NCBI RefSeq assembly: GCF_054482525.1
Contig: NZ_CM137006.1
Strand: one strand, 5' to 3'
Length of the DNA stretch: 64,000 nt
Shown: one piece after another, positions 2,173-44,114 of the stretch
Layout of the letters: each line of letters opens with the position of its first letter
Numbering within the stretch: position 1 is the first letter of the stretch
Program-made: the position numbers and the translations under genes
Notes under the pieces: generated by a model
Database searches by the model: none
What the model was told of the DNA's origin: nothing
The model's input: only the letters and a program-made list of their open reading frames with translations

Positions 2173-3330
2173 GTGACTTATTTCCGTATTAATCCTGTTC
2201 TGGCGCTGCTGCTGTTGCTGACGGCAATCGCAGCGGCGCTGCCGTTTATCAGTTACGCGCCTAATCGTTTAGTTTCGGGTGAGGGGCGTCATCTCTGGCA
2301 GCTGTGGCCGCAAACGATCTGGATGCTGGTGGGCGTTGGTTGCGCCTGGATGACAGCCTGTTTTATTCCCGCTAAAAAAGGCAGCATTTTTGCACTCATT
2401 CTGGCGCAATTCGTCTTCGTATTGCTGGTGTGGGGAGCAGGAAAGGCGGCGACACAACTGGCACAAAATGGCAGTGCGCTGGCGCGTACCAGCCTCGGCA
2501 GTGGTTTCTGGCTGGCTGCGGCGCTGGCATTGCTGGCCTGTAGCGATGCCATCCGCCGAATATCCACGCATCCGCTGTGGCGCTGGTTGTTGCATATGCA
2601 GATTGCCATTATTCCGCTGTGGTTGCTGTACGCCGGCACGCTTAACGATCTCTCGCTAATGAAAGAATACGCCAACCGTCAGGATGTGTTTGACGACGCG
2701 CTGGCACAACATCTGACGTTGCTGTTTGGTGCGGTGCTGCCTGCGTTAGTGATTGGTGTGCCGTTGGGCATCTGGTGCTACTTTTCCACTGCGCGGCAGG
2801 GGGCGATTTTTTCGCTACTCAATGTCATTCAGACCGTGCCTTCGGTAGCGCTCTTTGGCCTGTTGATTGCGCCGCTTGCCGCGCTGGTTACGGCCTTTCC
2901 GTGGCTGGGTAAGCTCGGCATAGCAGGAACAGGCATGACACCCGCACTGATTGCGCTGGTGCTCTATGCCTTGCTGCCGCTGGTGCGCGGCGTTGTAGTC
3001 GGCTTGAACCAGATCCCGCGCGATGTGCTGGAGAGCGCCAGAGCGATGGGCATGAGCGGGGCGCAGCGATTCCTGCATGTTCAGTTACCGCTGGCGTTAC
3101 CGGTATTTCTGCGTAGCCTGCGGGTGGTGATGGTGCAAACCGTCGGCATGGCGGTGATTGCGGCGTTAATCGGCGCAGGCGGTTTTGGTGCGCTGGTTTT
3201 CCAGGGGCTGCTAAGCAGTGCCATTGATTTAGTGTTGCTGGGGGTGATCCCGGTAATTGTTCTGGCGGTGCTGATCGATGCGCTGTTCGATTTGCTTATC
3301 GCACTGCTGAAGGTGAAACGTAATGATTGA
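2173..3330 (+). CDS. yehY: ABC transporter permease
   Basis: 385-aa polytopic membrane protein. It overlaps the next gene, consistent with translational coupling. Confidence 0.85.
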
Positions 3331-4253: not shown

Positions 4254-4985
4254 ATGAAGATGTTGCGCGATCCGCTGTTCTGGCTCATTGCTTTGTTTGT
4301 GGCACTGCTTTTCTGGCTGCCTTACAGCCAGCCGCTGTTTGCTGCCTTGTTCCCACAACTGCCACGACCCGTTTATCAGCAGGAAAGCTTTGCAGCTCTG
4401 GCACTGGCTCATTTCTGGCTGGTGGGAATTTCGAGTTTGTTTGCGGTGATCATTGGTACTGGTGCCGGAATTATTGTTACTCGCCCGTGGGGCGCGGAAT
4501 TTCGCCCACTGGTGGAAACTATTGCCGCCGTTGGGCAGACTTTTCCGCCCGTTGCGGTGCTGGCGATTGCCGTTCCGGTGATCGGCTTTGGTCTGCAACC
4601 CGCGATTATCGCCTTGATCCTTTACGGCGTGCTGCCCGTCCTGCAGGCGACACTTGCCGGGCTGGGAGCGATTGATGTCAGCGTGACAGAAGTTGCGAAA
4701 GGTATGGGAATGAGCCGTGGTCAGCGACTGCGTAAGGTCGAGCTACCGCTGGCGGCTCCGGTGATTCTGGCGGGCGTGCGAACTTCGGTGATTATCAACA
4801 TTGGTACGGCGACGATCGCCTCAACGGTAGGGGCCAGCACGCTGGGTACGCCCATCATCATCGGGCTTAGCGGATTTAATACCGCGTATGTGATCCAGGG
4901 GGCGTTACTGGTGGCACTGGCGGCGATCATTGCAGACCGCCTGTTTGAAAGGCTGGTGCAGGCGCTTAGCCAGCACGCAAAATAA
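4254..4985 (+). CDS. yehW: ABC transporter permease
   Basis: 243-aa membrane protein and last gene of the operon. Confidence 0.85.
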
Positions 4986-5073
4986 AGGTATAACCTGCGA
5001 GCATGACGCCACCAATTCCGCCTAACGCCATAAACAGGAACAGGGCGATGACCCCAATTTTAGCTATGCGCAT
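4966..5073 (-). CDS. yohO: small (35 aa) single-TM membrane protein, [35 protein letters not shown]
   Basis: Short hydrophobic ORF on the minus strand that overlaps the 3' end of yehW by 20 nt. Position and sequence match my recollection of YohO, but it is a small protein and therefore uncertain. Confidence 0.45.
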
Positions 5074-5132
5074 AATGCACTCCTTATGTTAACGAAAGGA
5101 TTGTACAGTAAAGCGCATTTGTTAACGAATGA

Positions 5133-5864
5133 TTAAATGCCGAGTGGGAAAATATCATGGCCTTGTTCCTGCCAACTGGTAAGTTGCTGCTGTTGGGCAG
5201 AGGTTCGATTTTCACCGCACCACACCAGCAATGTACGGCCTTCGAACAGTTCAGGGCGTAGTTGATTGAGCGAGTGGGCGAGGACATCAATGCGCCATCC
5301 TTGTTGACTGGCAATCCAGCCCTCCAGCCACAGACGGGTGGTATCGTGAATATTCCAGCCAACCACCAGCGCATCTTTACCCTGTTTTTTACGTGCCGAA
5401 GCCAGACAAATGGCGATGTAGTTGATCAGTACGCCGTCGAGGATCGCCAGCAGCGCCTGGAGAGTCGGTTGTTGGCACTGAAGTCGTCGGCGCAGAGGAA
5501 TAAACAGATGCGTGGTGAGTGTCTGGGCGGGGTAATCCTGACCGCGCTCTTTGATCCACGTTCGCAGGCTATGCAGATTGCCGCTTTGCAGGTAAGTCAG
5601 TAATGTTTCTTGCTGATCGCGCCAGCCGTTCTGCACATCAACATTTTCATTACTGAGCAGCATTTTAACTTTGCTGACCTGCACGCCGTTGTCGATCCAG
5701 CGTTTGATCTCGCGGATCCGGTCAATATCGGCATCGTTGAACAGCCGATGGCCGCCGTCTGTTCGTTGCGGTTTCAGCAATCCGTAACGCCTCTGCCACG
5801 CGCGTAACGTGACAGGGTTAATATCACAAAGCAACGCCACTTCACCAATTGTGTAAAGCGCCAT
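5133..5864 (-). CDS. mlrA: MerR-family transcriptional regulator (curli/csgD activator)
   Basis: 243-aa protein with an N-terminal MerR HTH (YTIGEVALLCDINPVTLRAWQRRYGL). The position between yehW and yehU fits. Confidence 0.85.
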   Translation of the reverse strand: MALYTIGEVALLCDINPVTLRAWQRRYGLLKPQRTDGGHRLFNDADIDRIREIKRWIDNGVQVSKVKMLLSNENVDVQNGWRDQQETLLTYLQSGNLHSLRTWIKERGQDYPAQTLTTHLFIPLRRRLQCQQPTLQALLAILDGVLINYIAICLASARKKQGKDALVVGWNIHDTTRLWLEGWIASQQGWRIDVLAHSLNQLRPELFEGRTLLVWCGENRTSAQQQQLTSWQEQGHDIFPLGI

Positions 5865-6085
5865 CGTCTCACCCTTGCTCGCGAGGTCCCGGTTTAACTT
5901 TAGACGCAGTTTTGCGAACCAGGTAGTTTTGCCCGTTTTTTGTGCATCTATAGGGTGATTTTATTTTTGCCAGGCGATTTTGAGTGATCGTACTCACGAA
6001 TTCTCATTTTTCTGCAAGAGTTCAAAGAAAGTTAAACGCAGGCAATGTATGTTACGCGTTTTAAAGGGAAGTGTGGTTTGCGGGT

Positions 6086-7771
6086 ATGTACGATTTTAAT
6101 CTGGTGTTGCTGCTGCTTCAGCAGATGTGCGTTTTTTTAGTCATTGCGTGGTTAATGAGTAAAACGCCATTATTCATACCGTTAATGCAGGTCACGGTTC
6201 GTCTGCCGCATAAATTTCTCTGCTACATCGTCTTTTCCATCTTCTGCATCATGGGCACCTGGTTTGGGTTGCACATTGACGATTCTATTGCCAATACCCG
6301 TGCGATAGGCGCGGTAATGGGCGGCTTGCTCGGCGGTCCGGTCGTCGGTGGGCTGGTTGGTCTGACCGGCGGGTTACATCGATATTCGATGGGGGGCATG
6401 ACCGCGCTAAGTTGCATGATCTCGACCATCGTTGAAGGATTGCTCGGCGGCCTGGTACACAGCATCCTGATCCGTCGCGGGCGCACTGATAAAGTCTTTA
6501 ACCCCATTACCGCCGGTGCCGTCACGTTCGTCGCTGAAATGGTGCAAATGTTGATCATCCTGGCGATCGCCCGACCTTATGAAGATGCGGTGCGTCTGGT
6601 GAGTAATATTGCTGCGCCAATGATGGTTACCAATACCGTCGGCGCGGCGCTGTTTATGCGTATATTGCTCGATAAACGCGCGATGTTTGAAAAATACACT
6701 TCGGCTTTTTCTGCCACTGCGCTAAAAGTGGCTGCCTCGACGGAAGGCATTTTGCGCCAGGGGTTTAACGAAGTTAACAGCATGAAAGTGGCACAGGTGC
6801 TGTATCAGGAGCTGGATATTGGTGCAGTCGCGATTACCGATCGAGAGAAATTGCTGGCCTTTACCGGAATTGGTGACGATCACCATTTACCCGGCAAACC
6901 GATTTCTTCGACTTACACCTTAAAAGCGATTGAAACCGGTGAAGTGGTCTACGCTGATGGCAACGAAGTACCTTATCGTTGCTCTTTGCATCCGCAATGC
7001 AAACTGGGGTCGACGCTGGTAATTCCGTTGCGTGGTGAAAATCAGCGGGTGATGGGCACCATCAAATTGTATGAAGCCAAAAACCGTTTATTCAGTTCAA
7101 TCAACCGCACGCTGGGCGAGGGGATTGCGCAACTGCTTTCGGCGCAGATCCTCGCCGGGCAATATGAGCGGCAAAAAGCGATGCTCACCCAGTCAGAGAT
7201 CAAACTGCTTCACGCCCAGGTGAACCCCCATTTTTTGTTTAATGCGCTTAACACCATTAAAGCGGTGATCCGCCGCGACAGCGAACAGGCCAGCCAGCTG
7301 GTCCAGTATCTTTCCACTTTTTTCCGCAAAAACTTAAAGCGGCCTTCGGAGTTTGTTACTCTCGCAGACGAAATTGAACATGTGAACGCTTATCTGCAAA
7401 TTGAAAAGGCGCGCTTCCAGTCGCGGTTGCAGGTCAACATTGCTATTCCGCAAGAATTATCCCAGCAGCAATTGCCCGCGTTTACCCTGCAACCGATAGT
7501 GGAAAACGCCATTAAACATGGGACATCACAACTGCTCGATACAGGGCGAGTGGCAATCAGCGCCCGACGTGAGGGGCAACATTTGATGCTGGAGATCGAA
7601 GACAATGCCGGTTTGTATCAACCGGTAACCAATGCCAGTGGGCTGGGGATGAATCTGGTGGATAAGCGTTTACGTGAACGGTTTGGCGATGACTATGGGA
7701 TAAGCGTCGCCTGTGAGCCTGATAGTTACACCCGAATAACGTTACGACTACCATGGAGGGACGAGGCATGA
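6086..7771 (+). CDS. btsS: LytS-type sensor histidine kinase (pyruvate sensing)
   Basis: 561 aa from the internal Met [10 protein letters not shown]. It has a 5TM-LytS N-terminus, a GAF domain and a His-kinase C-terminus, and is followed by the LytTR regulator. Confidence 0.85.
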
Positions 7772-8487
7772 TTAAAGTCTTAATTGTCGATGATGAACCG
7801 TTAGCACGGGAGAACCTGCGCGTATTTTTGCAGGAGCAGAGCGATATTGAAATTGTTGGAGAGTGTTCAAACGCCGTGGAAGGGATCGGCGCGGTGCATA
7901 AACTGCGCCCGGATGTGCTGTTTCTCGATATCCAGATGCCGCGCATCAGTGGTCTGGAAATGGTGGGGATGCTCGACCCGGAACATCGTCCGTATATTGT
8001 TTTTCTCACCGCGTTTGACGAATACGCTATTAAAGCCTTTGAAGAACATGCCTTTGATTATCTGCTGAAGCCAATTGATGAAGCGCGACTGGAGAAAACG
8101 CTGGCGCGATTGCGTCAGGAGCGCAGCAAGCAGGATGTTTCGCTGTTACCGGAAAATCAACAGGCGCTGAAATTTATCCCTTGTACGGGGCATAGTCGGA
8201 TTTATTTGCTGCAAATGAAAGATGTGGCATTTGTCAGCAGTCGGATGAGCGGTGTCTACGTTACGAGTCACGAAGGGAAAGAGGGCTTTACCGAACTGAC
8301 ATTACGTACCCTGGAGAGTCGTACACCACTACTACGCTGCCATCGTCAGTATCTGGTTAACCTCGCGCATTTACAGGAGATTCGTCTGGAAGATAACGGC
8401 CAGGCCGAGTTGATTTTGCGTAATGGCTTAACCGTGCCGGTCAGCCGTCGTTATCTGAAAAGCTTAAAAGAGGCGATTGGCCTGTAA
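7768..8487 (+). CDS. btsR: LytTR-family response regulator
   Basis: 239 aa starting [11 protein letters not shown], with a receiver domain plus LytTR domain. RBS is ggaggg. The 4-nt overlap with btsS implies coupling. Confidence 0.85.
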
Positions 8488-8533
8488 AAGACTGCTAAAA
8501 TGGCTTTTTGCCTCATCAACACCTGAAGGCCTC

Positions 8534-9004
8534 ATGCTAAGTAACGATATTCTGCGCAGCGTGCGCTACATTTTGAAAGCCAATAATAATGACCTGGTGC
8601 GTATTCTGGCGCTGGGTAATGTCGAAGCCACCGCGGAACAGATCGCCGTCTGGCTACGTAAAGAAGACGAAGAGGGTTTTCAGCGTTGTCCGGACATTGT
8701 TTTGTCTTCCTTCCTCAATGGCCTGATTTATGAAAAACGCGGCAAGGATGAGTCTGCTCCGGCACTGGAGCCGGAACGTCGCATTAATAACAACATCGTG
8801 CTGAAAAAATTACGCATCGCGTTTTCGCTGAAAACCGATGACATTCTGGCGATCCTCACCGAACAGCAGTTCCGCGTTTCGATGCCGGAAATTACGGCGA
8901 TGATGCGTGCACCGGATCATAAAAACTTCCGCGAATGCGGCGATCAATTTTTACGTTATTTTCTGCGTGGACTGGCAGCGCGCCAGCATGTGAAGAAAAG
9001 CTAA
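8534..9004 (+). CDS. yehS: DUF1456 family protein
   Basis: 156 aa from MLSNDILRSVRYILK. Gene order supports the call. Confidence 0.7.
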   Translation: MLSNDILRSVRYILKANNNDLVRILALGNVEATAEQIAVWLRKEDEEGFQRCPDIVLSSFLNGLIYEKRGKDESAPALEPERRINNNIVLKKLRIAFSLKTDDILAILTEQQFRVSMPEITAMMRAPDHKNFRECGDQFLRYFLRGLAARQHVKKS

Positions 9005-9013
9005 GACGGGTAT

Positions 9014-9038
9014 GGCGGCCATGCGAAACATGGCCGCC
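9014..9038. terminator. GC-rich hairpin (ggcggccatg-cgaaa-catggccgcc) between convergent yehS and yehR
   Basis: Perfect 10-bp stem seen in the sequence. Neither strand has a clear U-run, so its role as a terminator is uncertain. Confidence 0.35.
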
Positions 9039-9044
9039 GACAGA

Positions 9045-9506
9045 TTATTTCACTTCTTTAAAACCAGCGGCTTTCATCACCAGTTCCATTTGCGCCATAG
9101 TGATACCTTTTTTGGCATCTTCAGCAGAAACGTTGATTCCTGAAATACCCTGCAGGGCTTTAAAATCCACTTTTTCCATATCGATAGTCACGTTTTCCTG
9201 CGCGTAGGTATCGGTATAGGTTAATTTTTCTTCAACACCCGCGATATTTTTGTATTTGGCGCTTAACGGCTCAAGTGTCTTGGCAGCGTCTTCTTTGGTG
9301 GTTGCACCAATGGAGGCAAATTGAATTTTGGTTTCAGAAGATTGCTTAAGCACCTTGTCACCTTTGTAGACATAGGTAATGGCAATTTCAGTACCGTTCA
9401 GATTGGCGCTGAATTTTTTCGATTCTTCTTTGTCACCGCAGCCAGCAAGAGAGAAAACCAGAACAGATGCAACAACGAGGGAAAACAGCTTATTGAAAGC
9501 CTTCAT
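9045..9506 (-). CDS. yehR: lipoprotein (DUF1307)
   Basis: Starts MKAFNKLFSLVVASVLVFSLAGC and has a lipobox (LAGC). Confidence 0.75.
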   Translation of the reverse strand: MKAFNKLFSLVVASVLVFSLAGCGDKEESKKFSANLNGTEIAITYVYKGDKVLKQSSETKIQFASIGATTKEDAAKTLEPLSAKYKNIAGVEEKLTYTDTYAQENVTIDMEKVDFKALQGISGINVSAEDAKKGITMAQMELVMKAAGFKEVK

Positions 9507-9630
9507 GTAAAACTCCATTTTATTTAATCAAGAAACTGGTGACTCTCACCAGGGGCTATATAGGATATGCCTAATACCGTGGCGTGAGCAGTCCGGAACT
9601 GGAGTAGAACTCTTAGTAAAAAGCACTATT

Positions 9631-11631
9631 TCATCCTTGTTGCTGAAGCATGTGGAATAATTGTTCGCAAAGCAAAACACCGTTATTCATTGCTTCTACC
9701 CGTGCCTCGCTTTCTGTATTACAAAATTGTGCCAACACATGTGCCAGCCGATAAAAACCGACCGCGGTGAGGTCATTCGCCAGCAACTCTGCCTGACCAA
9801 TAGCACTCTGTTCCTGATAGCGCCAGCCGTTATGGAGCAGTTGAATAAGTAACGCCTGGCAGCGCATCAGCAACTGATGAGCGGTAGACGGCACAGGCAG
9901 AACGCTGGCAGAAGGTAGCGGTGCCACAGGCGCAGTTTCTGCGTCCAGCGCCCAGGCGCGGGTTTTGGTCATCATTACCCGTGGTTCCAGTGTCAATTGC
10001 CCCTCAACAAAACTGACAAAGCCAGAAACCAGACTCACGGGGTCGTCTGTGTGTTGCAAAAGTGCCGCCATGCGTTCAACGGCAAAAGGCGCGCTGGCTG
10101 AGGCTGGCAGTGATAAAGTCAGCAGATTATCTTCACCTTCGCCGCTGATTACCTGCGCATCCAGCGTCTGGCGGCTGCTATCCCAACCGAGTGAAATACA
10201 CTCAGCGACTGGCAGAATAAATAAGTTATCCACCTGATTAAGAGGCCGTATGCAGGCGGGGGGACGCTGGCGTAAATATTCCCGCAAAGCCACAATGCCC
10301 GACTGGCGCAATGGCGCGCTCAACATTTGCCAGGCGTCTGGCGACAGCGGCACAACGCTGCTTAAGCGGTTGCGGGTAGCTAACAACAGCTCGCCATCGG
10401 CACTGCGTTTTGCTGCTTGTGAAACAATTTGCCCACCTGCCAGTGCGCCAGCCAGAAAACTAAACAGCCGACGCGTCGCTGCCGGTGAGTTTTCCTGTTC
10501 GCTTCTCGGCCAACTACGCGAAAGATGCAAAATACTGCCAGTGTCGGGATCGGTAAACCAGATGCGTAAACCATAATGCTCAATATCCTGCCAGCAACGC
10601 ATACCTAAAGACACCAGCCGCAGATGATCAAGCTTTGCTTCTCCGGCAATGCCAGAGCCAACGACCGTGCGCCACGGCACAGGAGGAACTTCACCAACAC
10701 TGTCGCGCCGGGCCATCTCTTGTGCGCAATTTAATCGACTGTTTAATGCCGCAAGCTGACGTAAGCATTCTCCGACATGATAGTGGCTGGCGCGGGCGTG
10801 GAAGGCATCAACGCTGGCGCGCAGTTGCCGTAGCGATTCACTCACCCAGCGCCAGTTGCAGCGTTCCGCCGCTTGCTGCGCGCGGCTGAAAGCAGCCTTG
10901 TAATGAATAAGCGGCTGGCTGATGCCGCCAAGCCATAACGCCTGGCTTAATTGCTGAACATATTGACGACACGCGTCGCCCTCATCGTTGGCAAACGGAT
11001 CGTCAGATGATGTGACGTGTTCGCTGCGCATCTGCCAGATTAAATGAGTAAATTCCGCTTGCTGCGCTTTGGCCTGGACAAAGGCCTGTACTGCCAGTAC
11101 GACATGTTCGCAAAGTGTGCCGTCAATACAATCACAGCGTGCGAAACGAATGCTGCTGCGGGAATAAAAACGTACATCGCTCATCGGTAAGCGGGCAGAG
11201 GGAATTTCGCCCGGCGTACAGAACAACTCAATGGTGATGCCTTTAGCGACCAGTGTCTGTGCGCGTTTGCGGGTGGCATCGGGCAGGGTAGCCAGTTCTT
11301 CCAGCCAGATTGCCGGATCCCACTCTTCTTCTTTTTCCGTAGGCTGGGTGGTGGCGCAAAGTCGCTGATAACTTAAAACCAGCATCACGCGATGGCGGCA
11401 CATGCCGCTGGCCCCGCAGCTGCATTGAGCCTCTTTCAGTGCCTGACCGTTCGCCAGCTGGGTGCGGACACCGTCACTGAAGGTGGCGATTAAAGCGCCG
11501 TTCTCATGGCTGATTTCCGGGACGTTGCCATTTTCCAGTTCTTTAAGGCTGCGCTTAACAAAACCGGCATTGCTTAACGCCGTCAAAGCTTGTGGTGTCA
11601 GTTCTAATAATTCCGGCCGTAGTGAATTCAT
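9631..11631 (-). CDS. yehQ: SWIM zinc-finger protein
   Basis: Two CxCx(n)CxH SWIM-like motifs (CSCGASGMCRHRV, CDCIDGTLCEHVV). It is the last gene of the yehLMPQ cluster, and its start overlaps the yehP stop (ATGA). Confidence 0.7.
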   Translation of the reverse strand: MNSLRPELLELTPQALTALSNAGFVKRSLKELENGNVPEISHENGALIATFSDGVRTQLANGQALKEAQCSCGASGMCRHRVMLVLSYQRLCATTQPTEKEEEWDPAIWLEELATLPDATRKRAQTLVAKGITIELFCTPGEIPSARLPMSDVRFYSRSSIRFARCDCIDGTLCEHVVLAVQAFVQAKAQQAEFTHLIWQMRSEHVTSSDDPFANDEGDACRQYVQQLSQALWLGGISQPLIHYKAAFSRAQQAAERCNWRWVSESLRQLRASVDAFHARASHYHVGECLRQLAALNSRLNCAQEMARRDSVGEVPPVPWRTVVGSGIAGEAKLDHLRLVSLGMRCWQDIEHYGLRIWFTDPDTGSILHLSRSWPRSEQENSPAATRRLFSFLAGALAGGQIVSQAAKRSADGELLLATRNRLSSVVPLSPDAWQMLSAPLRQSGIVALREYLRQRPPACIRPLNQVDNLFILPVAECISLGWDSSRQTLDAQVISGEGEDNLLTLSLPASASAPFAVERMAALLQHTDDPVSLVSGFVSFVEGQLTLEPRVMMTKTRAWALDAETAPVAPLPSASVLPVPSTAHQLLMRCQALLIQLLHNGWRYQEQSAIGQAELLANDLTAVGFYRLAHVLAQFCNTESEARVEAMNNGVLLCEQLFHMLQQQG

Positions 11632-16242: not shown

Positions 16243-16335
16243 AAATAAAAAAACCTGCTGGTGAGGCAGGTTCTTTGATTTACTACTTTCAGGCCTAACA
16301 CCACGGCCTGTGCAACATCGTGTTCCAACGAACGA
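16243..16335 (-). ncRNA. orzO: candidate OrzO antitoxin sRNA (antisense to the zorO 5' UTR region)
   Basis: A minus-strand intrinsic terminator (stem cctgcctcaccagcagg plus U-run ending near 16246) sits upstream of and divergent from zorO. This is the architecture described for zor-orz loci. The ends given are approximate. Confidence 0.35.
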
Positions 16336-16852: not shown

Positions 16853-16945
16853 AAAATAAAAGAACCTGCTGGTGAGGCAGGTTCTTTTATTTACTACTTT
16901 GATGTTAAGTTACTGATAGTGCAACATGGCATCTCAACGAACGAA
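16853..16945 (-). ncRNA. orzP: candidate OrzP antitoxin sRNA
   Basis: Counterpart of orzO in repeat unit 2. The terminator stem is conserved but the U-run is weaker. Confidence 0.3.
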
Positions 16946-36142: not shown

Positions 36143-36224
36143 CAACCAAACGACTCGGGGTGCCCTTCTGCGTGAAGGCTGAGAAATACCCGTATCACCT
36201 GATCTGGATAATGCCAGCGTAGGG
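36143..36224. repeat. attL-like 82-bp direct repeat: duplicated 5' part of the thiM TPP-riboswitch aptamer
   Basis: Identical to 44033..44114. It lies between rcnR and an integrase gene. Confidence 0.85.
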
Positions 36225-36307
36225 GGCCAAAATAGTCTTGAAAATTATGTGGTTGTATCTCTTTTTGACCATAAATCATGCTGTTAAGGTACAAAAAGGG
36301 GTCGTTT

Positions 36308-37615
36308 ATGAGGTCAAGAACTCTCCCATACACATTTCAGCGAAACGGTAATTACTATCTACAAATCCGGCTTTCGGATGGTCGGATATACAAAAAATCA
36401 CTTTTTACTGACAGTTATCGCGAAGCATCGGCGTTGATGATTGGCCTTACTCCGCACATTCCTTTCGTTAAATCACTCGCTACTCCGTTGCCGCAATTTA
36501 ATAAGTTTGTTTCAAACTTGATCGCTTCGTCACGTAACGTAATGATTCCGTTGCCACTCCCTCAGCAATTGAACAATATTTCTAAAGAAGTTTTGCAGCT
36601 TCAACCACCAGCCAAACCGGAAAAGGTACTAACACTTGCTGATGCGTGGGCTATGTACAAGGAGGAAAGAGGTCGAAATTGGACAAAATCGATCTCAATA
36701 GCAAATGAGCGTTATATGGAGGTATTGCTTGTTGTCTTGGGAAAAGAAACAGACGTAACGGCAATCACCAAACAAGATATTAAGCGAGTAATGGAAACTG
36801 TCGAAAACTTACCAAAGCGTGTAGTGCAACCGTATAGGTCAATGACTATTCAGCAACTAATCGAATGTGATGATGTGCTGCCAGAGGATTTAGTTGGTGC
36901 TGAGGCTGTACATAAGCACCTTAAAATCTACAAATCGTTATTCAAAACATTTCTGACTGAAAACAAAGATATTCTATCTAAGTCTCCGACTGATGGAATA
37001 GTAGCGGCACCATCCAAAGCTAGGTTTGGTGCATACAGTGCAGCAGAAATGAAAAAATTTGTAGGATGGGCACTAAAGCAGCCTGATGGATGGCAGAAGT
37101 GGATCACTTTGTTGTTGGCGTACACAGGAGCCAGAAGAGGTGAGATTGCTAAACTGGAGAAGTCGCAGATCAAATTTGATGAAGATAGCCAGCGGCACTA
37201 TCTTCTGATCGCGGAAAGAAGGCTGGGTAAAACTGAGAATGCTACAAGACAGGTAGTGATTCATCCCAAACTGATTGAGTGGGGGTTTCTGGATTTTGTT
37301 AACCGCCAATGGAAAGAGAAAATCTTTTCGGAAGTCTCAGGTCGAAATATGTCAAAGATAGGTAAAGTTCTTTCAGATGTTCGTGATCAGCTTGATATTC
37401 CTTATCTTGATGATTATGGGCAGCGGCGCTTGGTGCATAGTTTCCGGCATACTATGATTTCTACTTGTTTAGCTGGTTGGGTGAGTAATTTGGCGCATCT
37501 GCAACAGGTGGTAGGTCATGAAAAGAGTGGAGTAGGGATTACCCAGCGTTATCTGCACACATTCCCACTTTCCACCGTTTGTTATGTGATCGATGGTCTT
37601 TGTTGGGAGACTTAG
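36308..37615 (+). CDS. tyrosine-type site-specific integrase
   Basis: 435 aa from MRSRTL, using the start downstream of RBS aaaagggg; the alternative start is at 36278. The C-terminal catalytic region has R...HSFRHT...Y (VHSFRHTMIS, ITQRYLH) and sits next to an att repeat. Confidence 0.8.
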   Translation: MRSRTLPYTFQRNGNYYLQIRLSDGRIYKKSLFTDSYREASALMIGLTPHIPFVKSLATPLPQFNKFVSNLIASSRNVMIPLPLPQQLNNISKEVLQLQPPAKPEKVLTLADAWAMYKEERGRNWTKSISIANERYMEVLLVVLGKETDVTAITKQDIKRVMETVENLPKRVVQPYRSMTIQQLIECDDVLPEDLVGAEAVHKHLKIYKSLFKTFLTENKDILSKSPTDGIVAAPSKARFGAYSAAEMKKFVGWALKQPDGWQKWITLLLAYTGARRGEIAKLEKSQIKFDEDSQRHYLLIAERRLGKTENATRQVVIHPKLIEWGFLDFVNRQWKEKIFSEVSGRNMSKIGKVLSDVRDQLDIPYLDDYGQRRLVHSFRHTMISTCLAGWVSNLAHLQQVVGHEKSGVGITQRYLHTFPLSTVCYVIDGLCWET

Positions 37616-37743: not shown

Positions 37744-38469
37744 ATGGTTAAAAATTTAGGCAAAAAATACAAGTATGGCGATCAACCGATAAGAGCTATT
37801 ACCATACAGATAATTGCTAATCAGTTTGGTGGGGCTGCAACGGCTAAGCAGGTAGATGATTATCTTAGAAAGCTATTTCCATCTTATAAAGATAATACTT
37901 GGCTCAATTTAATTGCTAATACAGTTAATTGTAAGCGGAGCTACTGGAGTTTCAACAAAACTGCCCGACGAACTGATGATGTAACTCATCGGCATCATAA
38001 GTATGACCGATTGTTCAAGCGTGGAAATATTTTTGAAATCTATCAACCATCTGTGCACGGTATTTGGGAATTATACCAGGATTTAGAAGGGATGTGGCGT
38101 TATCGTCAAGTAAAATCGGTTTTCGAAGAAGCTGTTGAGACGGCTGCAAAATTATCTTCAGTGGAACGAAAGCAAATTTTAGCGACAGAAAGTAAAATCC
38201 CGGAACTAATCGAAGTAACAACACGAGTTTATAAACGAAGCCCATATGTAGTTGCTGAAGTTCTTTTGAGAGCAAATGGAAAATGTCAATATTGTAAGCG
38301 AGATGCTCCTTTTCTAAAGGAAGATGGTACTCCATTTCTAGAAGTTCATCATATTGAGTGGCTTTCAAAGGGGGGGGAGGACTCTGTGGAAAATGCTATT
38401 GCATTATGTCCTAATTGCCATAGACAAGCCCATTATGGCGATCTGACATTACTACCTGTTAATAAATAG
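37744..38469 (+). CDS. McrA-like HNH endonuclease (putative type IV modification-dependent restriction enzyme)
   Basis: The C-terminal motif CQYCKRDAPFLKEDGTPFLEVHHIEWLSKGGEDSVENAIALCPNCHRQAHYGD is a close pattern match to the McrA HNH region. The N-terminal roughly 150 aa are unrelated to any family I recognise. Confidence 0.55.
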   Translation: MVKNLGKKYKYGDQPIRAITIQIIANQFGGAATAKQVDDYLRKLFPSYKDNTWLNLIANTVNCKRSYWSFNKTARRTDDVTHRHHKYDRLFKRGNIFEIYQPSVHGIWELYQDLEGMWRYRQVKSVFEEAVETAAKLSSVERKQILATESKIPELIEVTTRVYKRSPYVVAEVLLRANGKCQYCKRDAPFLKEDGTPFLEVHHIEWLSKGGEDSVENAIALCPNCHRQAHYGDLTLLPVNK

Positions 38470-39635: not shown

Positions 39636-40187
39636 TTACGCCACCTGCTCTTTCTTGATACGTTGCACCGTCTGCGTGCTGACACTGAAATCTTTTGCTA
39701 CGCTCCGAATTGAGCCACCATTCGCGAGAGCGGCAGCAATTCCCGCTCGATCAATTGCTTTTCCATTACCACGTTTTGCTATACGTCCAGCGGCCTTGGC
39801 TGCGGCGATCCCTTCACGTTGACGCTCAAGCATCATTTCACGTTCCATTTGTGCCACTGCTGCAAGAACTGTGAGCATCATATTCCCTGCGGGAGAGTTC
39901 TTTCCTGTCTTAAAGTCTTCTTTATGGAAATGCACAGACACGCCGCGCTTTGTTAATTGCTCTACAGTTGCCAGAAGGTCGGCTGTATTACGACAAAGGC
40001 GATCAATACTATGGACGTGTAACACGTCACCCTCCCGCACATAGTTCATCATTGCCTCAAACTGTGGGCGCTGAGTGTTCTTGCCTGACGCTTTATCTTC
40101 AAAGACTTTATCAAGAGTTACTCCTGCTAATTGACGGTCTGTGTTTTGTTGCACAGTCGATACCCTAATGTATCCAATATTAGCCAT
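39636..40187 (-). CDS. small serine recombinase (resolvase/invertase family)
   Basis: N-terminal catalytic motif IGYIRVSTVQQNTDRQ with the active-site Ser. The C-terminal HTH reads SIRSVAKDFSVSTQTVQRI. 183 aa. Confidence 0.8.
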   Translation of the reverse strand: MANIGYIRVSTVQQNTDRQLAGVTLDKVFEDKASGKNTQRPQFEAMMNYVREGDVLHVHSIDRLCRNTADLLATVEQLTKRGVSVHFHKEDFKTGKNSPAGNMMLTVLAAVAQMEREMMLERQREGIAAAKAAGRIAKRGNGKAIDRAGIAAALANGGSIRSVAKDFSVSTQTVQRIKKEQVA

Positions 40188-40219
40188 CTTCTTTTTTCTT
40201 CTGTATTGATTTGTGTGTA

Positions 40220-40325
40220 GTGATTATTGAACGTGTTGATTAGGTGTGTAAAGTACTTTTTTCACTACGAAATTCGAAGTTTTTTAGTGTGGTGATTTAG
40301 CCTGCCTTATCACTACACTTCTTGC
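40220..40325. promoter_or_regulatory. candidate res/recombination site: clustered inverted copies of GTGTAGTGAT(T/A)A just upstream of the serine recombinase gene
   Basis: Motifs found at about 40226 (gtgtagtgatta), 40262 (tcactacg, inverted), 40283 (agtgtggtgatt) and 40309 (atcactacac, inverted). The arrangement resembles multi-subsite res sites. Confidence 0.3.
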
Positions 40326-40571
40326 ATGAGAATCATGTAGTTACATTTTGGTAAAATTAGCAAGCTATTAAATTGTGTGTTTATTTTGAAAAAATAATTT
40401 TTGTTGCATTAAAGAAAACTTGTTCGACAAATAATAGGTTGATTTTTGATCAATAATTTCTGATAGTGCTCTGTAAGCCGCATTACACAAGGCGCAGCGA
40501 AAGTGATGTAAAAGTGAAGAAAGCTAACATTGCACTTTTAAACTACTTTTCATTGAATTTTTTAGTATGGA

Positions 40572-40644
40572 ATTACACAGGAATAAGTTAGGGATATTCT
40601 ATGATTTACACAGGGAATATAGGGGGATTATGGTATTACACAGA
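40572..40644. repeat. three spaced (a/t)ttacacag motifs, 33 and 31 bp apart, upstream of the iterons
   Basis: attacacagg at 40572, tttacacagg at 40605 and attacacaga at 40636. Possible protein-binding array (DnaA- or IHF-like sites or Rep auxiliary sites). Confidence 0.35.
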
Positions 40645-40673
40645 GTGAGTGCTATGTGATGATTGGTAGTAAC

Positions 40674-40783
40674 GGTAGGTCACTGTGAACTAGGGGGGTA
40701 GGTCACTGTGAACTAGGGGGGTAGGTCACTGTGAGCTAGGGGGTAGGTCACTGTGAACTAGGGGGTAGGTCACTGTGAACTAC
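40674..40783. repeat. five tandem 22/23-bp iterons (TAGGTCACTGTGAACTAGGGGG), putative replication origin
   Basis: Copies start at 40676, 40699, 40722, 40744 and 40766. They are directly followed by an AT-rich tract of about 90 bp (40784..40870) made of ataataagactat-type repeats, a candidate DNA-unwinding element. There are no spacers, so this is not CRISPR. Confidence 0.85.
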
Positions 40784-41884
40784 AATAAGACTATAATAAG
40801 ACTATTAATAAAACTATATTAGATTATTAATTAGATCATAATAATAATATTCTTTATATCTATATATATATGATCTTTTGCCTTCCGGCGTTAGCTTCAC
40901 TCTCTGGCAAGCAGCCTTACTCCGCTACCTTTCGGGCTACGTTGGCTGGCCCGTTCCGCTCACACCGAAAGCAAAGCGTTACTTTCTTCGTGTAACTTCG
41001 TTGGCGGTAACGCCCACGAAGGAATACTATTGCGCTGTGCGCAGTAAGAGTAATCACCTAACCAATCATCTGATTGCTTACGTGTTAACTCTCTCTAACT
41101 CTTAATTACCCTCCTACATTTAATAACTCTCGTTATTCTCTGTAGTTGTGTAATTACTCGAAGAGAGAGCGGCTAAAGCTCAATTACACTCTGCTTTCCT
41201 CGTGTAATTTCACTAAGCCTCAATACAATTTCACTTCCTACATTCTGTAGTCGTGTAATTGTTTTCGGTGGAAAAGCCAGAGGCGACACCGAAAGAGAAT
41301 TCTGATCTTATTAATCTTATCTATCTTAGTTATCTTACTTACTTTATCTACTTTATTATTAATAATAGCTTTATAAGCTCTCTGTGTAGCTCTCTGACGC
41401 AAGAAACAGAGTTCAGGAAGGGAATCACCTTAGAAAAGTGTTCTTTGCGTCATAATGTGTTTTATGAAGGATTCAGAGGTGTTTCATAACAGAGATGTAT
41501 AGAGGATACTTTAGGTAATTAAAAATAAGGGGTCTAAATGCTTCTCTAACAGCATTAAGCAGGGTAGAGAATGGAAACCGCTTTGCCTACATATATAAAC
41601 TCACTACAGGGCTTTACAGAGCGTTTTATAAAGTGACTCTCTGTTTTATATCTACCATCACCTTTTCATATACCTAACAAATACAAAATAAGCCCCTTAA
41701 ATAAGCCTCTGGCGAGCTAAACAGCCATTACATAAGAGAATGTATTGCTTTTATCAAAACCTCGTTAGAACGCGTTTTAGAGCGTTTTAGCGGATAATGA
41801 AGAATAGCACTACACAGGAGAGCACGAATTGCTAAGAAAAAATGTAACTACATGAAAAAGATCAGATTTTTTGTGAAAAGGTAT

Positions 41885-41913
41885 TGACAAACGTCTCTTT
41901 CTGTGCAATAATA
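41885..41913 (+). promoter_or_regulatory. sigma70-like promoter (TTGACA-17-AATAAT) for the small-gene operon
   Basis: Consensus -35, 17-bp spacer and an A/T-rich -10, located about 125 bp upstream of the first ORF. Confidence 0.4.
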
Positions 41914-42038
41914 GGTATTAGAGGGACAGGAATAGATTCTTATCCTCTAAATAATTAAACCAATGCACCGCACTTTGAAGCCCAAGGCTTGTAAGGTGTG
42001 TTTTTTCTTTTAACCAAATAGAATAAGGAGGCTAATTA

Positions 42039-42227
42039 ATGAAATATTTTACTCCACAGGATGTAGTAGAAGCCTGGAAACGTGGTGAGATCAACCGCTT
42101 TAAAGTAAGGATGTATAGAAACACCGCTCGCCGTTGTGGTTATCCAGAGCGTGAAAAATGTTTTGACGATGCACTAAAAATTATTGATGAACTGCGTAAA
42201 GCTGAGAAAGAAGCAGAGAAAAAATAA
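42039..42227 (+). CDS. hypothetical 62-aa basic protein
   Basis: Strong RBS aaggagg. It is the first gene of a tightly packed 4-gene operon. Confidence 0.45.
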   Translation: MKYFTPQDVVEAWKRGEINRFKVRMYRNTARRCGYPEREKCFDDALKIIDELRKAEKEAEKK

Positions 42228-42249
42228 TAGACAAGAGAAGGAGAAAACT

Positions 42250-42417
42250 ATGAGCGAAACTAAGAAACCAATTCCGCGCACTTACCTACACGTTGACCCT
42301 GAAATCTTCAAGGTTTTATTTGCTGAAGCCAAGAAAAGGCAAATTATGGTCAGTGATTTGATGTTAGAAATCATTACTGAAGCAGCAGAGAACATCAAAC
42401 AAAAAAAGGGTAAGTGA
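42250..42417 (+). CDS. 55-aa putative ribbon-helix-helix (CopG/Arc-like) DNA-binding protein
   Basis: RBS aggag. Its size and the N-terminal beta-strand (PRTYLHVDPEIF) followed by two helices look RHH-like. This is an inference from sequence pattern only. Confidence 0.35.
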   Translation: MSETKKPIPRTYLHVDPEIFKVLFAEAKKRQIMVSDLMLEIITEAAENIKQKKGK

Positions 42418-42468
42418 TCCTCATTCACTTTAGTAGCGCATTAAGCGTGATTTATAAGGAGATTTTTA

Positions 42469-43158
42469 ATGATTAATCAACTAACTTTTACAAAACACTA
42501 TGACACGTTTGATAATGTATCAAAGATTTATTCTGATAAATTCCCTCAAGGAAAAGATTTAGATCTATTACATATTGTGCTTTATTTTCGATTCCTTAGT
42601 TATCAGGAAAACAACCTTAATTGTTATGAAAGTCACGAAACATTAGCTAAGATTTTTAAGTCTTCAGCGTCAACAATTAAACGTAAGATAAACGATCTTA
42701 AAGAGATGGGATTATTAGAAACATCCCCACATCCTGATCCGTATATTTCATCTTTGATTTACAATGCTCTCCCTCTCACAGATGCACATATTACTCCCCC
42801 AGGAGAATCATCACTCTCTGATCTTTCTGAGGCAGAAGAAGCACAGGAACAACCTAAAGGCCATAAACAGCCTTCTTTTGATGTTCTTGATGATTGGGAT
42901 ACGCCTTTACCCTGGGAGACGGAAGAAACACCTGTTTCATCAAGTGAAAAAGTAGCTAATGATAATGAGGAGGATGTGTTAGAGAATTTTGCCTCTCTTA
43001 TCATCCAGGAGAAACACACAAGAACAGGAGGAGCATCATTTATTGAGTTTGCAAATTCACTAGCTTGTAGATACGGGCTAAAACGACCAAATGGTATTGA
43101 GGCATATTTTTCTAAGAATTACCCAAATATATACGATGACTTTGATATTCCATTTTAA
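42469..43158 (+). CDS. 229-aa winged-helix protein with an acidic disordered C-terminal half, candidate replication initiator
   Basis: HTH-like segment HETLAKIFKSSASTIKRKINDLKEMGLLE. Strong RBS taaggag. It is encoded downstream of the iteron array. No recognised family without a search. Confidence 0.4.
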   Translation: MINQLTFTKHYDTFDNVSKIYSDKFPQGKDLDLLHIVLYFRFLSYQENNLNCYESHETLAKIFKSSASTIKRKINDLKEMGLLETSPHPDPYISSLIYNALPLTDAHITPPGESSLSDLSEAEEAQEQPKGHKQPSFDVLDDWDTPLPWETEETPVSSSEKVANDNEEDVLENFASLIIQEKHTRTGGASFIEFANSLACRYGLKRPNGIEAYFSKNYPNIYDDFDIPF

Positions 43159-43169
43159 TAAGGAGGGTT

Positions 43170-43415
43170 ATGATTCAATATTTAGTAAAAAATCAAGTAG
43201 ACAGAATTCAGTGTAATGACACAGGAAAACGCATCTACGAGACACTTGTTTACCTCTATAAAGGAAAGCCAACACCGCTAAAATATAGCGATGTGTTACA
43301 TCGAGCAGGTTGCTCTGAGTCAGGTTTAAAATTCTGGCTGAAACAGCTATCAAATTTCGGTGTTATTGAAATGAAAGAGCTGTCTTTTTCTACATTCAAC
43401 CTCAAGAAGTTATAG
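43170..43415 (+). CDS. 81-aa putative winged-helix DNA-binding protein
   Basis: RBS aaggaggg. The segment DVLHRAGCSESGLKFWLKQLSNFGVIE resembles a wHTH. Confidence 0.4.
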   Translation: MIQYLVKNQVDRIQCNDTGKRIYETLVYLYKGKPTPLKYSDVLHRAGCSESGLKFWLKQLSNFGVIEMKELSFSTFNLKKL

Positions 43416-43580
43416 AAAATAGAATTCATCTATTCCACGCTCTAATTCTATTTCTCTGTTTAATATAAAAGGAAAACATTATTATGGTAATAGCTATGTG
43501 GTGGTTGTTGTTTTTTATGCTCGTAGAAACATATGCAAGTAAGTCTGGAAAACAAAAATAATATATTGATGATTTGTTTT

Positions 43581-44032: not shown

Positions 44033-44114
44033 CAACCAAACGACTCGGGGTGCCCTTCTGCGTGAAGGCTGAGAAATACCCGTATCACCTGATCTGGATA
44101 ATGCCAGCGTAGGG
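44033..44114. repeat. attR-like 82-bp direct repeat (5' part of the native thiM riboswitch)
   Basis: Identical to 36143..36224. It is contiguous with the remainder of the thiM leader. Confidence 0.85.

Follow-up and report, generated by a model that had tools for sequence, protein, structure and literature searches.

A putative lambda-type replication origin in the non-coding region of a satellite-like integrative island of Escherichia coli

Here, we analysed the 1.85-kb non-coding region at positions 40188-42038 of a 64,000-nucleotide stretch of an Escherichia coli chromosome (contig NZ_CM137006.1 of assembly GCF_054482525.1), hereafter the window, whose coordinates are used throughout. The region lies in an island of about 7.9 kb between rcnR and thiM and, with a probability that we put at roughly 80% from sequence comparison, is the cis control region of an integrative, satellite-like element, with a core (40674-40870) that represents a replication origin of the lambda type. 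From this arrangement, we infer that the island replicates autonomously after excision. An earlier note, made from the letters of the window alone, had read the region as the replication origin of an excisable island, and this core reading is supported by strong comparative evidence, namely, the strict pairing of initiator types with iteron types described below.

As that note stated, the region contains no sizeable open reading frame (ORF), the longest being 75-76 aa with TTG starts. Because homologues are separated from one another by several 1-nt indels at these ORFs, hidden coding in the region is unlikely. All seven sequence features listed in the earlier note were found where it had placed them, each beyond chance expectation, although the interpretation of some of these changes, as discussed below. 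The predicted components of the origin are as follows:

40674..40783, plus strand: five 22/23-bp iterons TAGGTCACTGTGAACTAGGGGG with the internal dyad TCAC-T-GTGA, located with Tandem Repeats Finder (TRF) and by motif search; predicted initiator sites
40784..40870, unstranded: AT-rich tract of 87 bp, 88.5% AT, with an 11-bp periodic repeat and two GATC sites; putative DNA-unwinding element
42469..43158, plus strand: gene of the 229-aa initiator, with an N-terminal winged-helix domain (HTH_36), the conserved linker LP(L/F)TDAHITPP and a C-terminal domain ending in DDFDIPF

The tandem iterons are spaced by 23, 23, 22 and 22 bp in an array that TRF delimits at about 40671-40787 (4.8 copies, 96% matches, score 197), and the AT-rich tract that follows ends in TATATATATATATG, both as previously described. 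The iterons are the predicted binding sites of the 229-aa initiator. Of the origin grammar suggested in the earlier note, the combination of iterons, an unwinding element and a winged-helix initiator of an excisable island stands, whereas the assignments to theta plasmids and to rolling-circle replicons do not. The arrangement is not that of a classical iteron theta plasmid because there is no Rep_3 domain (Pfam and NCBIfam, island proteins) and no DnaA box, and rolling-circle replication is unsupported because no island protein matched a Rep of the HUH or Rep_trans family (Pfam, NCBIfam and PHROG). Given that the iterons are dyad-symmetric, the grammar is closer to that of lambda O or that seen in phage-inducible chromosomal islands (PICIs) than to that of Rep_3 plasmids. 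The origin proper, i.e., the iterons and the AT-rich tract, explains only about 200 of the 1851 bp, so that most of the region is still unexplained by it.

Initiators and iterons co-vary among related loci

The co-variation was assessed in 20 distinct related loci (individual loci are denoted L followed by a number), including one contig that is only about 75% identical in DNA. Across this set, five types of the initiator N-terminal, winged-helix sequence pair with five types of iterons, with 0 exceptions:

type A: N-terminus MINQLTFTKHYD..., iteron TAGGTCACTGTGAACTAGGGGG, 10 loci
type B: N-terminus MIKHTKPFLG..., iteron TGATACCCCTATCA, 2 loci
type C: N-terminus M..TKTIAEAKA..., iteron TAGGAAATGAGTTCC, 4 loci, including the contig of about 75% identity
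type D: N-terminus MINEEQFVKV..., iteron ACAGAATTCTGT, 2 loci
type E: N-terminus ..SKIKLIREKYQY..., iteron GTAACGAnAnGTTAC, 2 loci

In all relatives, the iterons occupy a slot bounded by two conserved anchors, on the left TTACACAG...GTGCTATGTGA, of which the rightmost TTACACAG-type motif is kept in all loci, and on the right either GATCTTTTGCCTTCCGGCGTTAGC, in the version found in the window, or GGGATACCCGTTAGGGAG, in a second version; the right anchor is always located about 1.5-1.7 kb upstream of the 229-aa gene. The contents of the slot diverge sharply between loci, while the non-coding DNA on both sides is 90-100% identical, and an AT tract adjoins the iterons in every relative. Some slots are composite, with remnants or whole cassettes of other types farther left; in these, the cognate cassette is always the one in contact with the AT tract and the conserved right flank, and the iterons move jointly with 80-100 bp of AT tract as one cassette. 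The composite slots look like a record of past swaps of origin specificity. Slots with 2-3 tandem cassettes of iterons and AT tract occur in L010 (1950-2280), L011 (6030-6345) and L078 (3790-4050), and L078 contains, in addition, a sixth iteron type (TCGGTCACGATGACTG) for which there is no matching initiator in that contig.

Behind and beside the type E N-terminus, the C-terminal domain and the middle segment each come in two different forms, yet the iteron is the same throughout. Since this iteron remains constant across differing C-termini and middle segments, specificity is assigned to the N-terminal domain of the initiator, which on this comparison is predicted to set the choice of iteron. 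All six iteron types, including the extra one (type F) in L078, carry an internal dyad with arms of 4-6 bp, which suggests that the initiator binds as a dimer, as is the case for lambda O. Furthermore, the same pair of iteron and initiator was seen with two unrelated integrases at two att sites, and for this reason the interpretation of the iterons as integrase arm sites was rejected.

The initiator and a proposed course of initiation

The 229-aa protein matches PHROG families of replication initiators, O-like and DnaD-like proteins, the E-value being 2e-9 for the allele of the window and near 1e-10 for that of L004, with the O-like and DnaD-like families ranging from 2e-9 to 4e-10; it contains no helicase or primase domain (Pfam, PHROG). 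An exhaustive search of 1.84 billion representative proteins for homologues yielded only 39 related clusters. Regardless of the C-terminal domain that precedes it, the C-terminus reads DDFDIPF, EDFDLPF or YDS(I/L)PF in all alleles, and in 12 of the 15 full-length diverse relatives retrieved, the last residues are [I/V/L/D/T]-P-F, preceded by an acidic stretch. [quoted passage not shown] The initiator tip may recruit partners of SSB; in the literature, nothing was found on the DFDIPF motif or on the recruitment of SSB partners by such initiators.

We propose that initiation would begin with the binding of initiator dimers to the five dyad-symmetric iterons via the N-terminal winged helix, upon which the adjacent 87-bp, 88.5% AT tract would melt. 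Given that the initiator lacks helicase and primase domains, host replication proteins must be recruited, perhaps via the conserved acidic ...IPF C-terminus. The hairpin domain beyond the AT tract (40877-41296) is probably an aid to priming or to the loading of the helicase, or else codes for a structured RNA. The serine recombinase encoded next to the region and its GTGTAGTGAT sites would probably act in two ways, by resolving multimeric forms of the excised circle and by autoregulating the recombinase gene, and the promoter at 41884, with its terminator-like leader, would set the supply of initiator. A more far-reaching version of this scheme posits a DnaA-independent mode of initiation that has not been described before, in which a minimal winged-helix initiator melts the AT tract and its mimic of the SSB tip recruits SSB partners such as PriA, PriC, DnaG or the clamp-loader subunit chi onto the adjacent 420-nt hairpin platform, where the primosome would assemble or priming would take place, or which would be a structured primer RNA, all this in a widespread family of satellites that swap origin cassettes. 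We offer this version as speculation and would expect it to fail at one point or another.

The hairpin domain

40877..41296, unstranded: hairpin-dense domain of about 420 nt, delimited by a long-range closure of 40877-40905 with 41266-41296 and by fold z-scores

The GC-richer segment with hairpins reported in the earlier note is present, but it spans about 420 nt rather than about 200 bp. Compared with shuffled sequences, 40877-41296 is exceptionally structured both as RNA (z = -6.4 for the plus strand and -8.8 for the minus strand) and as DNA (z = -5.8 and -6.9), with the signal limited to about 40950-41300, whereas 41300-41900 is not unusually structured. The domain contains GNRA-type loops, stems formed by GTGTAATT and CCTACA/TGTAGG, and a core, CCGCTCACACCGAA...TGCGCTGTGCGC. 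The GTGTAATT and CCTACA motifs that the earlier note had listed as repeated sites do occur but are halves of hairpin stems and not a separate array of protein sites: the GTGTAATT copies and the CCTACA...CTGTAG pairs form the two arms of three related hairpins.

At the equivalent place, other lineages (e.g., L020) have a second, largely unrelated version of the sequence, which is likewise structured (z = -4.1 and -4.5). Both versions share the core CCGCTCACAnCGAA, followed by 54-62 nt with a hairpin of differing sequence and then by TGCGCTGTGCGC. A miniature inverted-repeat transposable element or another multicopy repeat was rejected as the source of the domain because the median copy number per genome is one and every copy lies within the element.

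The flanks of the putative origin

To the left, the region abuts the gene of a small serine recombinase, and the following features lie between this gene and the iterons:

39636..40187, minus strand: small serine recombinase, 183 aa (Pfam Resolvase, E = 1e-38; PHROG DNA invertase, E = 2e-61)
40200..40330, unstranded: recombinase promoter and res-like cluster, with GTGTAGTGAT at 40215, GTGTGGTGAT at 40287 and ATCACTACAC at 40309
40333..40349, unstranded: left copy (TCATGTAGTTACATTTT) of a perfect 17-bp inverted repeat, with its partner at 41839-41855
40482..40641, plus strand: four (A/T)TTACAC motifs, locally enriched, the last three of them phased

In the PDB, the recombinase is about equally near the Tn3/gamma-delta resolvase (3e-27) and Gin (1.6e-24). 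A cluster of inverted GTGTAGTGAT motifs had been reported beside its gene, and indeed 4 of the 7 matches in the window (at most one mismatch) fall in the region, at 40215 and 40287 on the plus strand and at 40309 and 41806 on the minus strand; at least 7 matches per window were reached in 1 of 100 shuffles. Inverted pairs of these motifs overlap the recombinase promoter (minus strand; -35 at 40252-40247, -10 at 40228-40223), a layout reminiscent, by analogy, of the autoregulation at res sites. This left-edge block is conserved beside the recombinase gene in L002, L020 and L021, and 40188-40390 travels with that gene. A recombinase gene always flanks the region, although in one lineage it is of the tyrosine rather than the serine type; in L078, a diverged metagenomic relative, an ORF of 224 aa resembling tyrosine recombinases (2432-3106) takes the place of the serine recombinase.

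The two copies of the 17-bp inverted repeat have palindromic arms flanking a central GT/AC dinucleotide and enclose 1489 bp, the putative origin among them. The left copy is conserved in all recombinase-bearing loci, whereas a perfect right copy is seen in just 4 of about 80 loci, only in this lineage, and the right copy carries 2 mismatches, including the central dinucleotide, in most relatives. An A(T/G)CACTACAC motif precedes each copy by 14-23 bp, and each lies upstream of a promoter that faces outward. The pair could be operators upstream of two outward promoters or crossover sites.

The three phased motifs noted previously were recovered as TTACACAG at 40572, 40605 and 40635, with spacings of 33 and 30 bp, and an additional ATTACAC lies to their left at 40482. 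Of the nine matches to ATTACAC/GTGTAAT in the window, 7 are concentrated within 778 bp (40482-41259), where about 7 would be expected across all 64 kb. The right-hand ones among them, like the CCTACA/TGTAGG pairs, make up halves of hairpin stems. The region contains no perfect DnaA box (TTWTNCACA), and matches with one mismatch are no commoner in the window than in shuffles; by this same scan, TTACACAG is not supported as a weak DnaA box.

To the right of the hairpin domain, the region leads into the initiator operon:

41299..41383, unstranded: array of AT-rich 9-13-bp repeats resembling ATCTTATT, with a copy number that varies between relatives
41610..41883, plus strand: conserved block upstream of the promoter, with AAATAAGCC and GCGTTTTAGA repeats, GTGTAGTGCT at 41806 and the right 17-mer
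41884..41912, plus strand: sigma-70 promoter of the four-ORF operon, TTGACA-17-AATAAT, with TG before the -10
41918..42038, plus strand: 5' leader that contains two hairpins; a U-run follows the second one (at about 41969-42001), which is terminator-like
42039..42417, plus strand: a pair of small ORFs, 62 aa and 55 aa long, that precede the initiator gene (RefSeq)
43170..43415, plus strand: 81-aa ORF, the last gene of the module shared among relatives, which ends near 43533 (RefSeq)

The consensus promoter proposed in the earlier note matches at 11 of 12 positions. The last 290 bp or so upstream of the promoter are common to all lineages, even those with a different middle segment, and in the window-like lineage, 41300-41900 is at least as conserved as the downstream small ORFs, which is due in part to allelic mosaicism of the genes. 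In relatives, the stem of the leader hairpin (41969-42010) drops one base per arm in concert, which suggests a conserved attenuator that would control expression of the initiator. None of the 62-aa, 55-aa and 81-aa ORFs has a family match, and the ribbon-helix-helix-like label previously given to the 55-aa product is not established.

The island and its relatives

The island is integrated inside the thiamine pyrophosphate (TPP) riboswitch of thiM, and a copy of the riboswitch is found at both island ends (Rfam), the left copy now being located upstream of the integrase gene. The ends are marked by an 82-bp perfect direct repeat (100% identity):

36143..36224, plus strand: attL, the left-hand member of the 82-bp repeat pair, lying in the riboswitch copy at 36146-36241 (identity to the right copy; Rfam)
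44033..44114, plus strand: attR, the right copy, inside the functional TPP riboswitch of thiM (Rfam)
36308..37615, plus strand: tyrosine integrase of the island (Pfam Phage_integrase, phrog_1, RefSeq integrase annotation)

An integrase-bearing island with specific att repeats is a trait of PICIs and of the Staphylococcus aureus pathogenicity islands (SaPIs), and it is present here in the form of the tyrosine integrase and the 82-bp repeat. In PICIs and SaPIs, a helper phage is required for induction, replication and packaging. From left to right, the island encodes the tyrosine integrase, an HNH nuclease, a hypothetical protein, an XRE-type helix-turn-helix (HTH) protein and, on the minus strand, the 183-aa serine recombinase; after the latter, which ends at 40187, come the 1.85 kb of non-coding DNA, the operon of 62-, 55-, 229- and 81-aa ORFs, and a small HTH_73 ORF. 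The cargo at 37744-38469, the HNH nuclease, matches a type IV methyl-directed restriction enzyme in PADLOC (E = 1e-23), and its neighbours are a 115-aa ORF of no assigned function and an HTH protein resembling XRE and control proteins. Elsewhere in the window, the minus strand carries two copies of OrzO-P, the antitoxin RNA of zor-orz, a toxin-antitoxin system of type I (16247-16322 and 16858-16931).

Parts or all of the region occur in 726 of 5,426 complete E. coli genomes (about 13%), nearly always on the chromosome; the region of the window is 100% identical to that of strain SCU-102. The sole real plasmid match is an integrated copy, disrupted by IS3, on an IncF plasmid: in L077 (NZ_CP126938.1), the recombinase, the non-coding region and the operon (4448-10398) reside on a conjugative IncF plasmid, and IS3 interrupts the non-coding part. 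The module shared among relatives (about 40391-43533) comprises most of the non-coding DNA and the four-ORF operon. This same module is found in an element of about 12 kb at tRNA-Thr (thrW), next to proA, with a different tyrosine integrase (L004 1-11361, L003, L020, L078 and L103), and in some of the thrW elements the same serine recombinase adjoins the non-coding DNA. The thrW elements, found in about 13% of complete E. coli genomes, carry a major capsid gene of the lambda E type and encode a tape-measure-like protein of 611 aa and a Dit-like tail protein. In a relative at tRNA-Gly, L021, the non-coding DNA extends over about 2.5 kb; at 7500-8240, the hairpin motif GTGAGCGnnnAGCGAA occurs several times and a 60-bp unit is duplicated. 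IS1 interrupts the operon of L021.

The family differs from the classical PICIs of E. coli. The integrative mobilisable elements known as PIMEs were rejected as relatives on account of their different gene set, and the Sakai prophages Sp1 and Sp2 at thrW are unrelated elements. A scan of viral contigs with a 15-base pattern returned mostly unrelated loci, i.e., chance matches. With no description found in the literature, this family of satellite-like elements is apparently undescribed.

Alternative explanations

Several observations weigh against an origin function. The family matches of the initiator are weak, with a score against Pfam HTH_36 of 24.4 bits, below the gathering cut-off of 25; it has no sequence match in the PDB, the best hits, to winged-helix regulators and TubR, being insignificant (E of about 0.5-0.8); and its single-sequence AlphaFold model is uninformative, with a predicted local distance difference test (pLDDT) value of 49. 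With neither a DnaA box nor a helicase-loader gene, there is no evident route for loading DnaB, and the putative origin is 1.6-1.7 kb away from the initiator gene, unlike the situation in lambda or PICIs. In L006 and L007, the type A initiator is intact, yet only two iterons are present, so that many copies of the element may be decaying. Moreover, none of 68 metagenome stretches retrieved with the hairpin-core pattern, only some of them full-length contigs, has a terminal overlap of the circular type. As judged from its sequence, the origin would work like those of lambda and PICIs despite missing two of their defining features. A rival reading is that the 229-aa protein is only a transcription factor and that the iterons are an operator or a centromere-like array without origin function: RefSeq names the protein 'transcriptional regulator', the best, insignificant PDB hits are of that kind, and co-variation proves specific binding, not replication. 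However, the iterons are invariably joined to the AT tract in one moving cassette, the array is 1.7 kb from the nearest promoter open to its regulation, there is no ParA, ParM or TubZ partner, and the PHROG matches are all to replication initiators or helicase loaders, which makes a purely regulatory or centromeric role improbable. The conserved non-coding DNA might instead be a site for packaging, cos or pac, of which a helper phage was the source, considering that the thrW relatives have a capsid gene, that neither a portal nor a terminase was recognised when ten L004 ORFs were scanned, and that these relatives would hence need packaging by a helper. Yet nothing similar was found in 50,697 phage records at E up to 1 (blastn) with the whole region or with either version of the middle segment, and we hold a borrowed packaging site to be a long shot, on a par with the regulatory array.

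The hairpin domain and the 17-bp repeat each invite a further interpretation. The segment 40877-41900 might mainly yield a large structured non-coding RNA, acting as a primer or in immunity or regulation, which could coexist with an origin. Its fold z-scores are very strong, the minus-strand RNA is about 25 kcal/mol more stable than the plus-strand one, a long-range closing helix is predicted, and the second sequence version is structured as well, with a hairpin kept between two conserved anchors. Against this stand the failure of Rfam to return a match, be it with gathering thresholds or with E up to 1, the lack of a convincing promoter on either strand, hairpins that fold equally well as DNA, and the confinement of structure to 40950-41300, with 41300-41900 devoid of it; compensatory pairs numbered 0 in 14 sequences and 0 in 38 that are 88-100% identical, the sequences being too alike to reveal such pairs, and in the 38 sequences broken pairs were as many as wobble-preserved ones. 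We consider an RNA as the main product doubtful, if a serious contender. Far less probable, in our estimation, is that the 1489 bp between the 17-mers form a segment that the serine recombinase inverts, switching the context of origin and promoter. A perfect 17-bp inverted repeat with palindromic arms beside a Hin/Gin-like recombinase, for which a chance match is negligible, is what such a switch would look like, but a synthetic inverted junction searched against the 5,426 E. coli genomes revealed 0 flipped copies among about 680 carriers, all fetched loci are colinear, and the right copy is mismatched, the central dinucleotide included, in most relatives. For perfect pairs, the junction search is weak because only 3-4 genomes have a perfect pair of 17-mers.

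Implications

If the putative lambda-type origin is functional, the island would be an integrative element capable of replicating itself and not a dead remnant, which bears on the spread of defence genes and on the amplification of satellites after induction. The five or six matched pairs of initiator and iterons in a nearly identical backbone would provide a natural system for the study of origin specificity and incompatibility. Furthermore, the SSB-tip-like C-terminus and the hairpin domain could show how a replicon without a loader engages the host replisome; the combination of such a tip, no loader and a large conserved hairpin domain leaves room for a more novel mechanism of initiation.

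Comparison with known systems

The lambda origin consists of 4-6 tandem, dyad-symmetric iterons of about 20 bp, with an AT-rich tract beside them and palindromic DNA beyond, and is located inside the O gene. In lambda O, an N-terminal winged helix sets iteron specificity and a separate C-terminal domain serves recruitment, with the P loader encoded downstream; lambdoid relatives swap specificity modules, i.e., the N-terminus together with the iterons. The island resembles this system in its tandem dyad iterons of about 22 bp, AT tract and palindromic DNA, in its modular initiator and swapped specificity, and in the weak O-like PHROG match. Unlike in lambda, however, the origin of the island is not within the initiator gene but in non-coding DNA 1.6-1.7 kb upstream, there is no P-like helicase loader, the ORF after the initiator being of only 81 aa and without a family, and the initiator is smaller than O and has an SSB-like ...DDFDIPF tip; in the DNA, a 420-nt hairpin domain lies past the AT tract.

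The iteron plasmids of the Rep_3 type (pSC101, R6K, F, P1 and RK2) have tandem iterons of 17-22 bp, which are asymmetric monomer sites, and an AT-rich element; DnaA boxes adjoin the iterons, and the Rep_3 initiator has two winged-helix domains. Like them, the island has tandem iterons next to AT-rich DNA for unwinding, encodes its own initiator and has a recombinase close by that is probably for multimer resolution, but it differs in that it has neither a Rep_3 domain nor a DnaA box, its iterons are dyad-symmetric, and there is no plasmid homologue at the DNA level other than the IncF copy. With the res sites of Tn3/gamma-delta and with the multimer-resolution systems of plasmids, the left edge of the region has in common a 183-aa recombinase gene transcribed away from inverted 10-bp motifs that overlap its own promoter. 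By contrast, the three-subsite architecture of res is not demonstrated here, the recombinase is equally near to Gin/Hin, and one copy of the motif is 1.5 kb away, near the operon promoter.

PICIs and SaPIs, represented by EcCICFT073 (PMC6092414), are similar to the island in size (about 8-15 kb) and in having an integrase, an initiator of their own and an origin in which short iterons are combined with an AT-rich melting region, in carrying defence or accessory cargo, and in the capsid homologue, which EcCICFT073 shares with the relatives of the island. E. coli PICI origins with the same logic of iterons and AT-rich DNA maintain plasmids experimentally (PMC6092414). In PICIs, two sets of iterons flank the AT tract, 3' of pri-rep, which has primase and helicase domains (PMC6092414), whereas the island has a single array on one side and an initiator without an enzymatic domain, and it lacks alpA and the Stl-type layout. 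Taken together, the kind of origin is most likely a familiar one, an iteron origin resembling those of lambda O or PICIs, borne by a family of elements that is apparently new.

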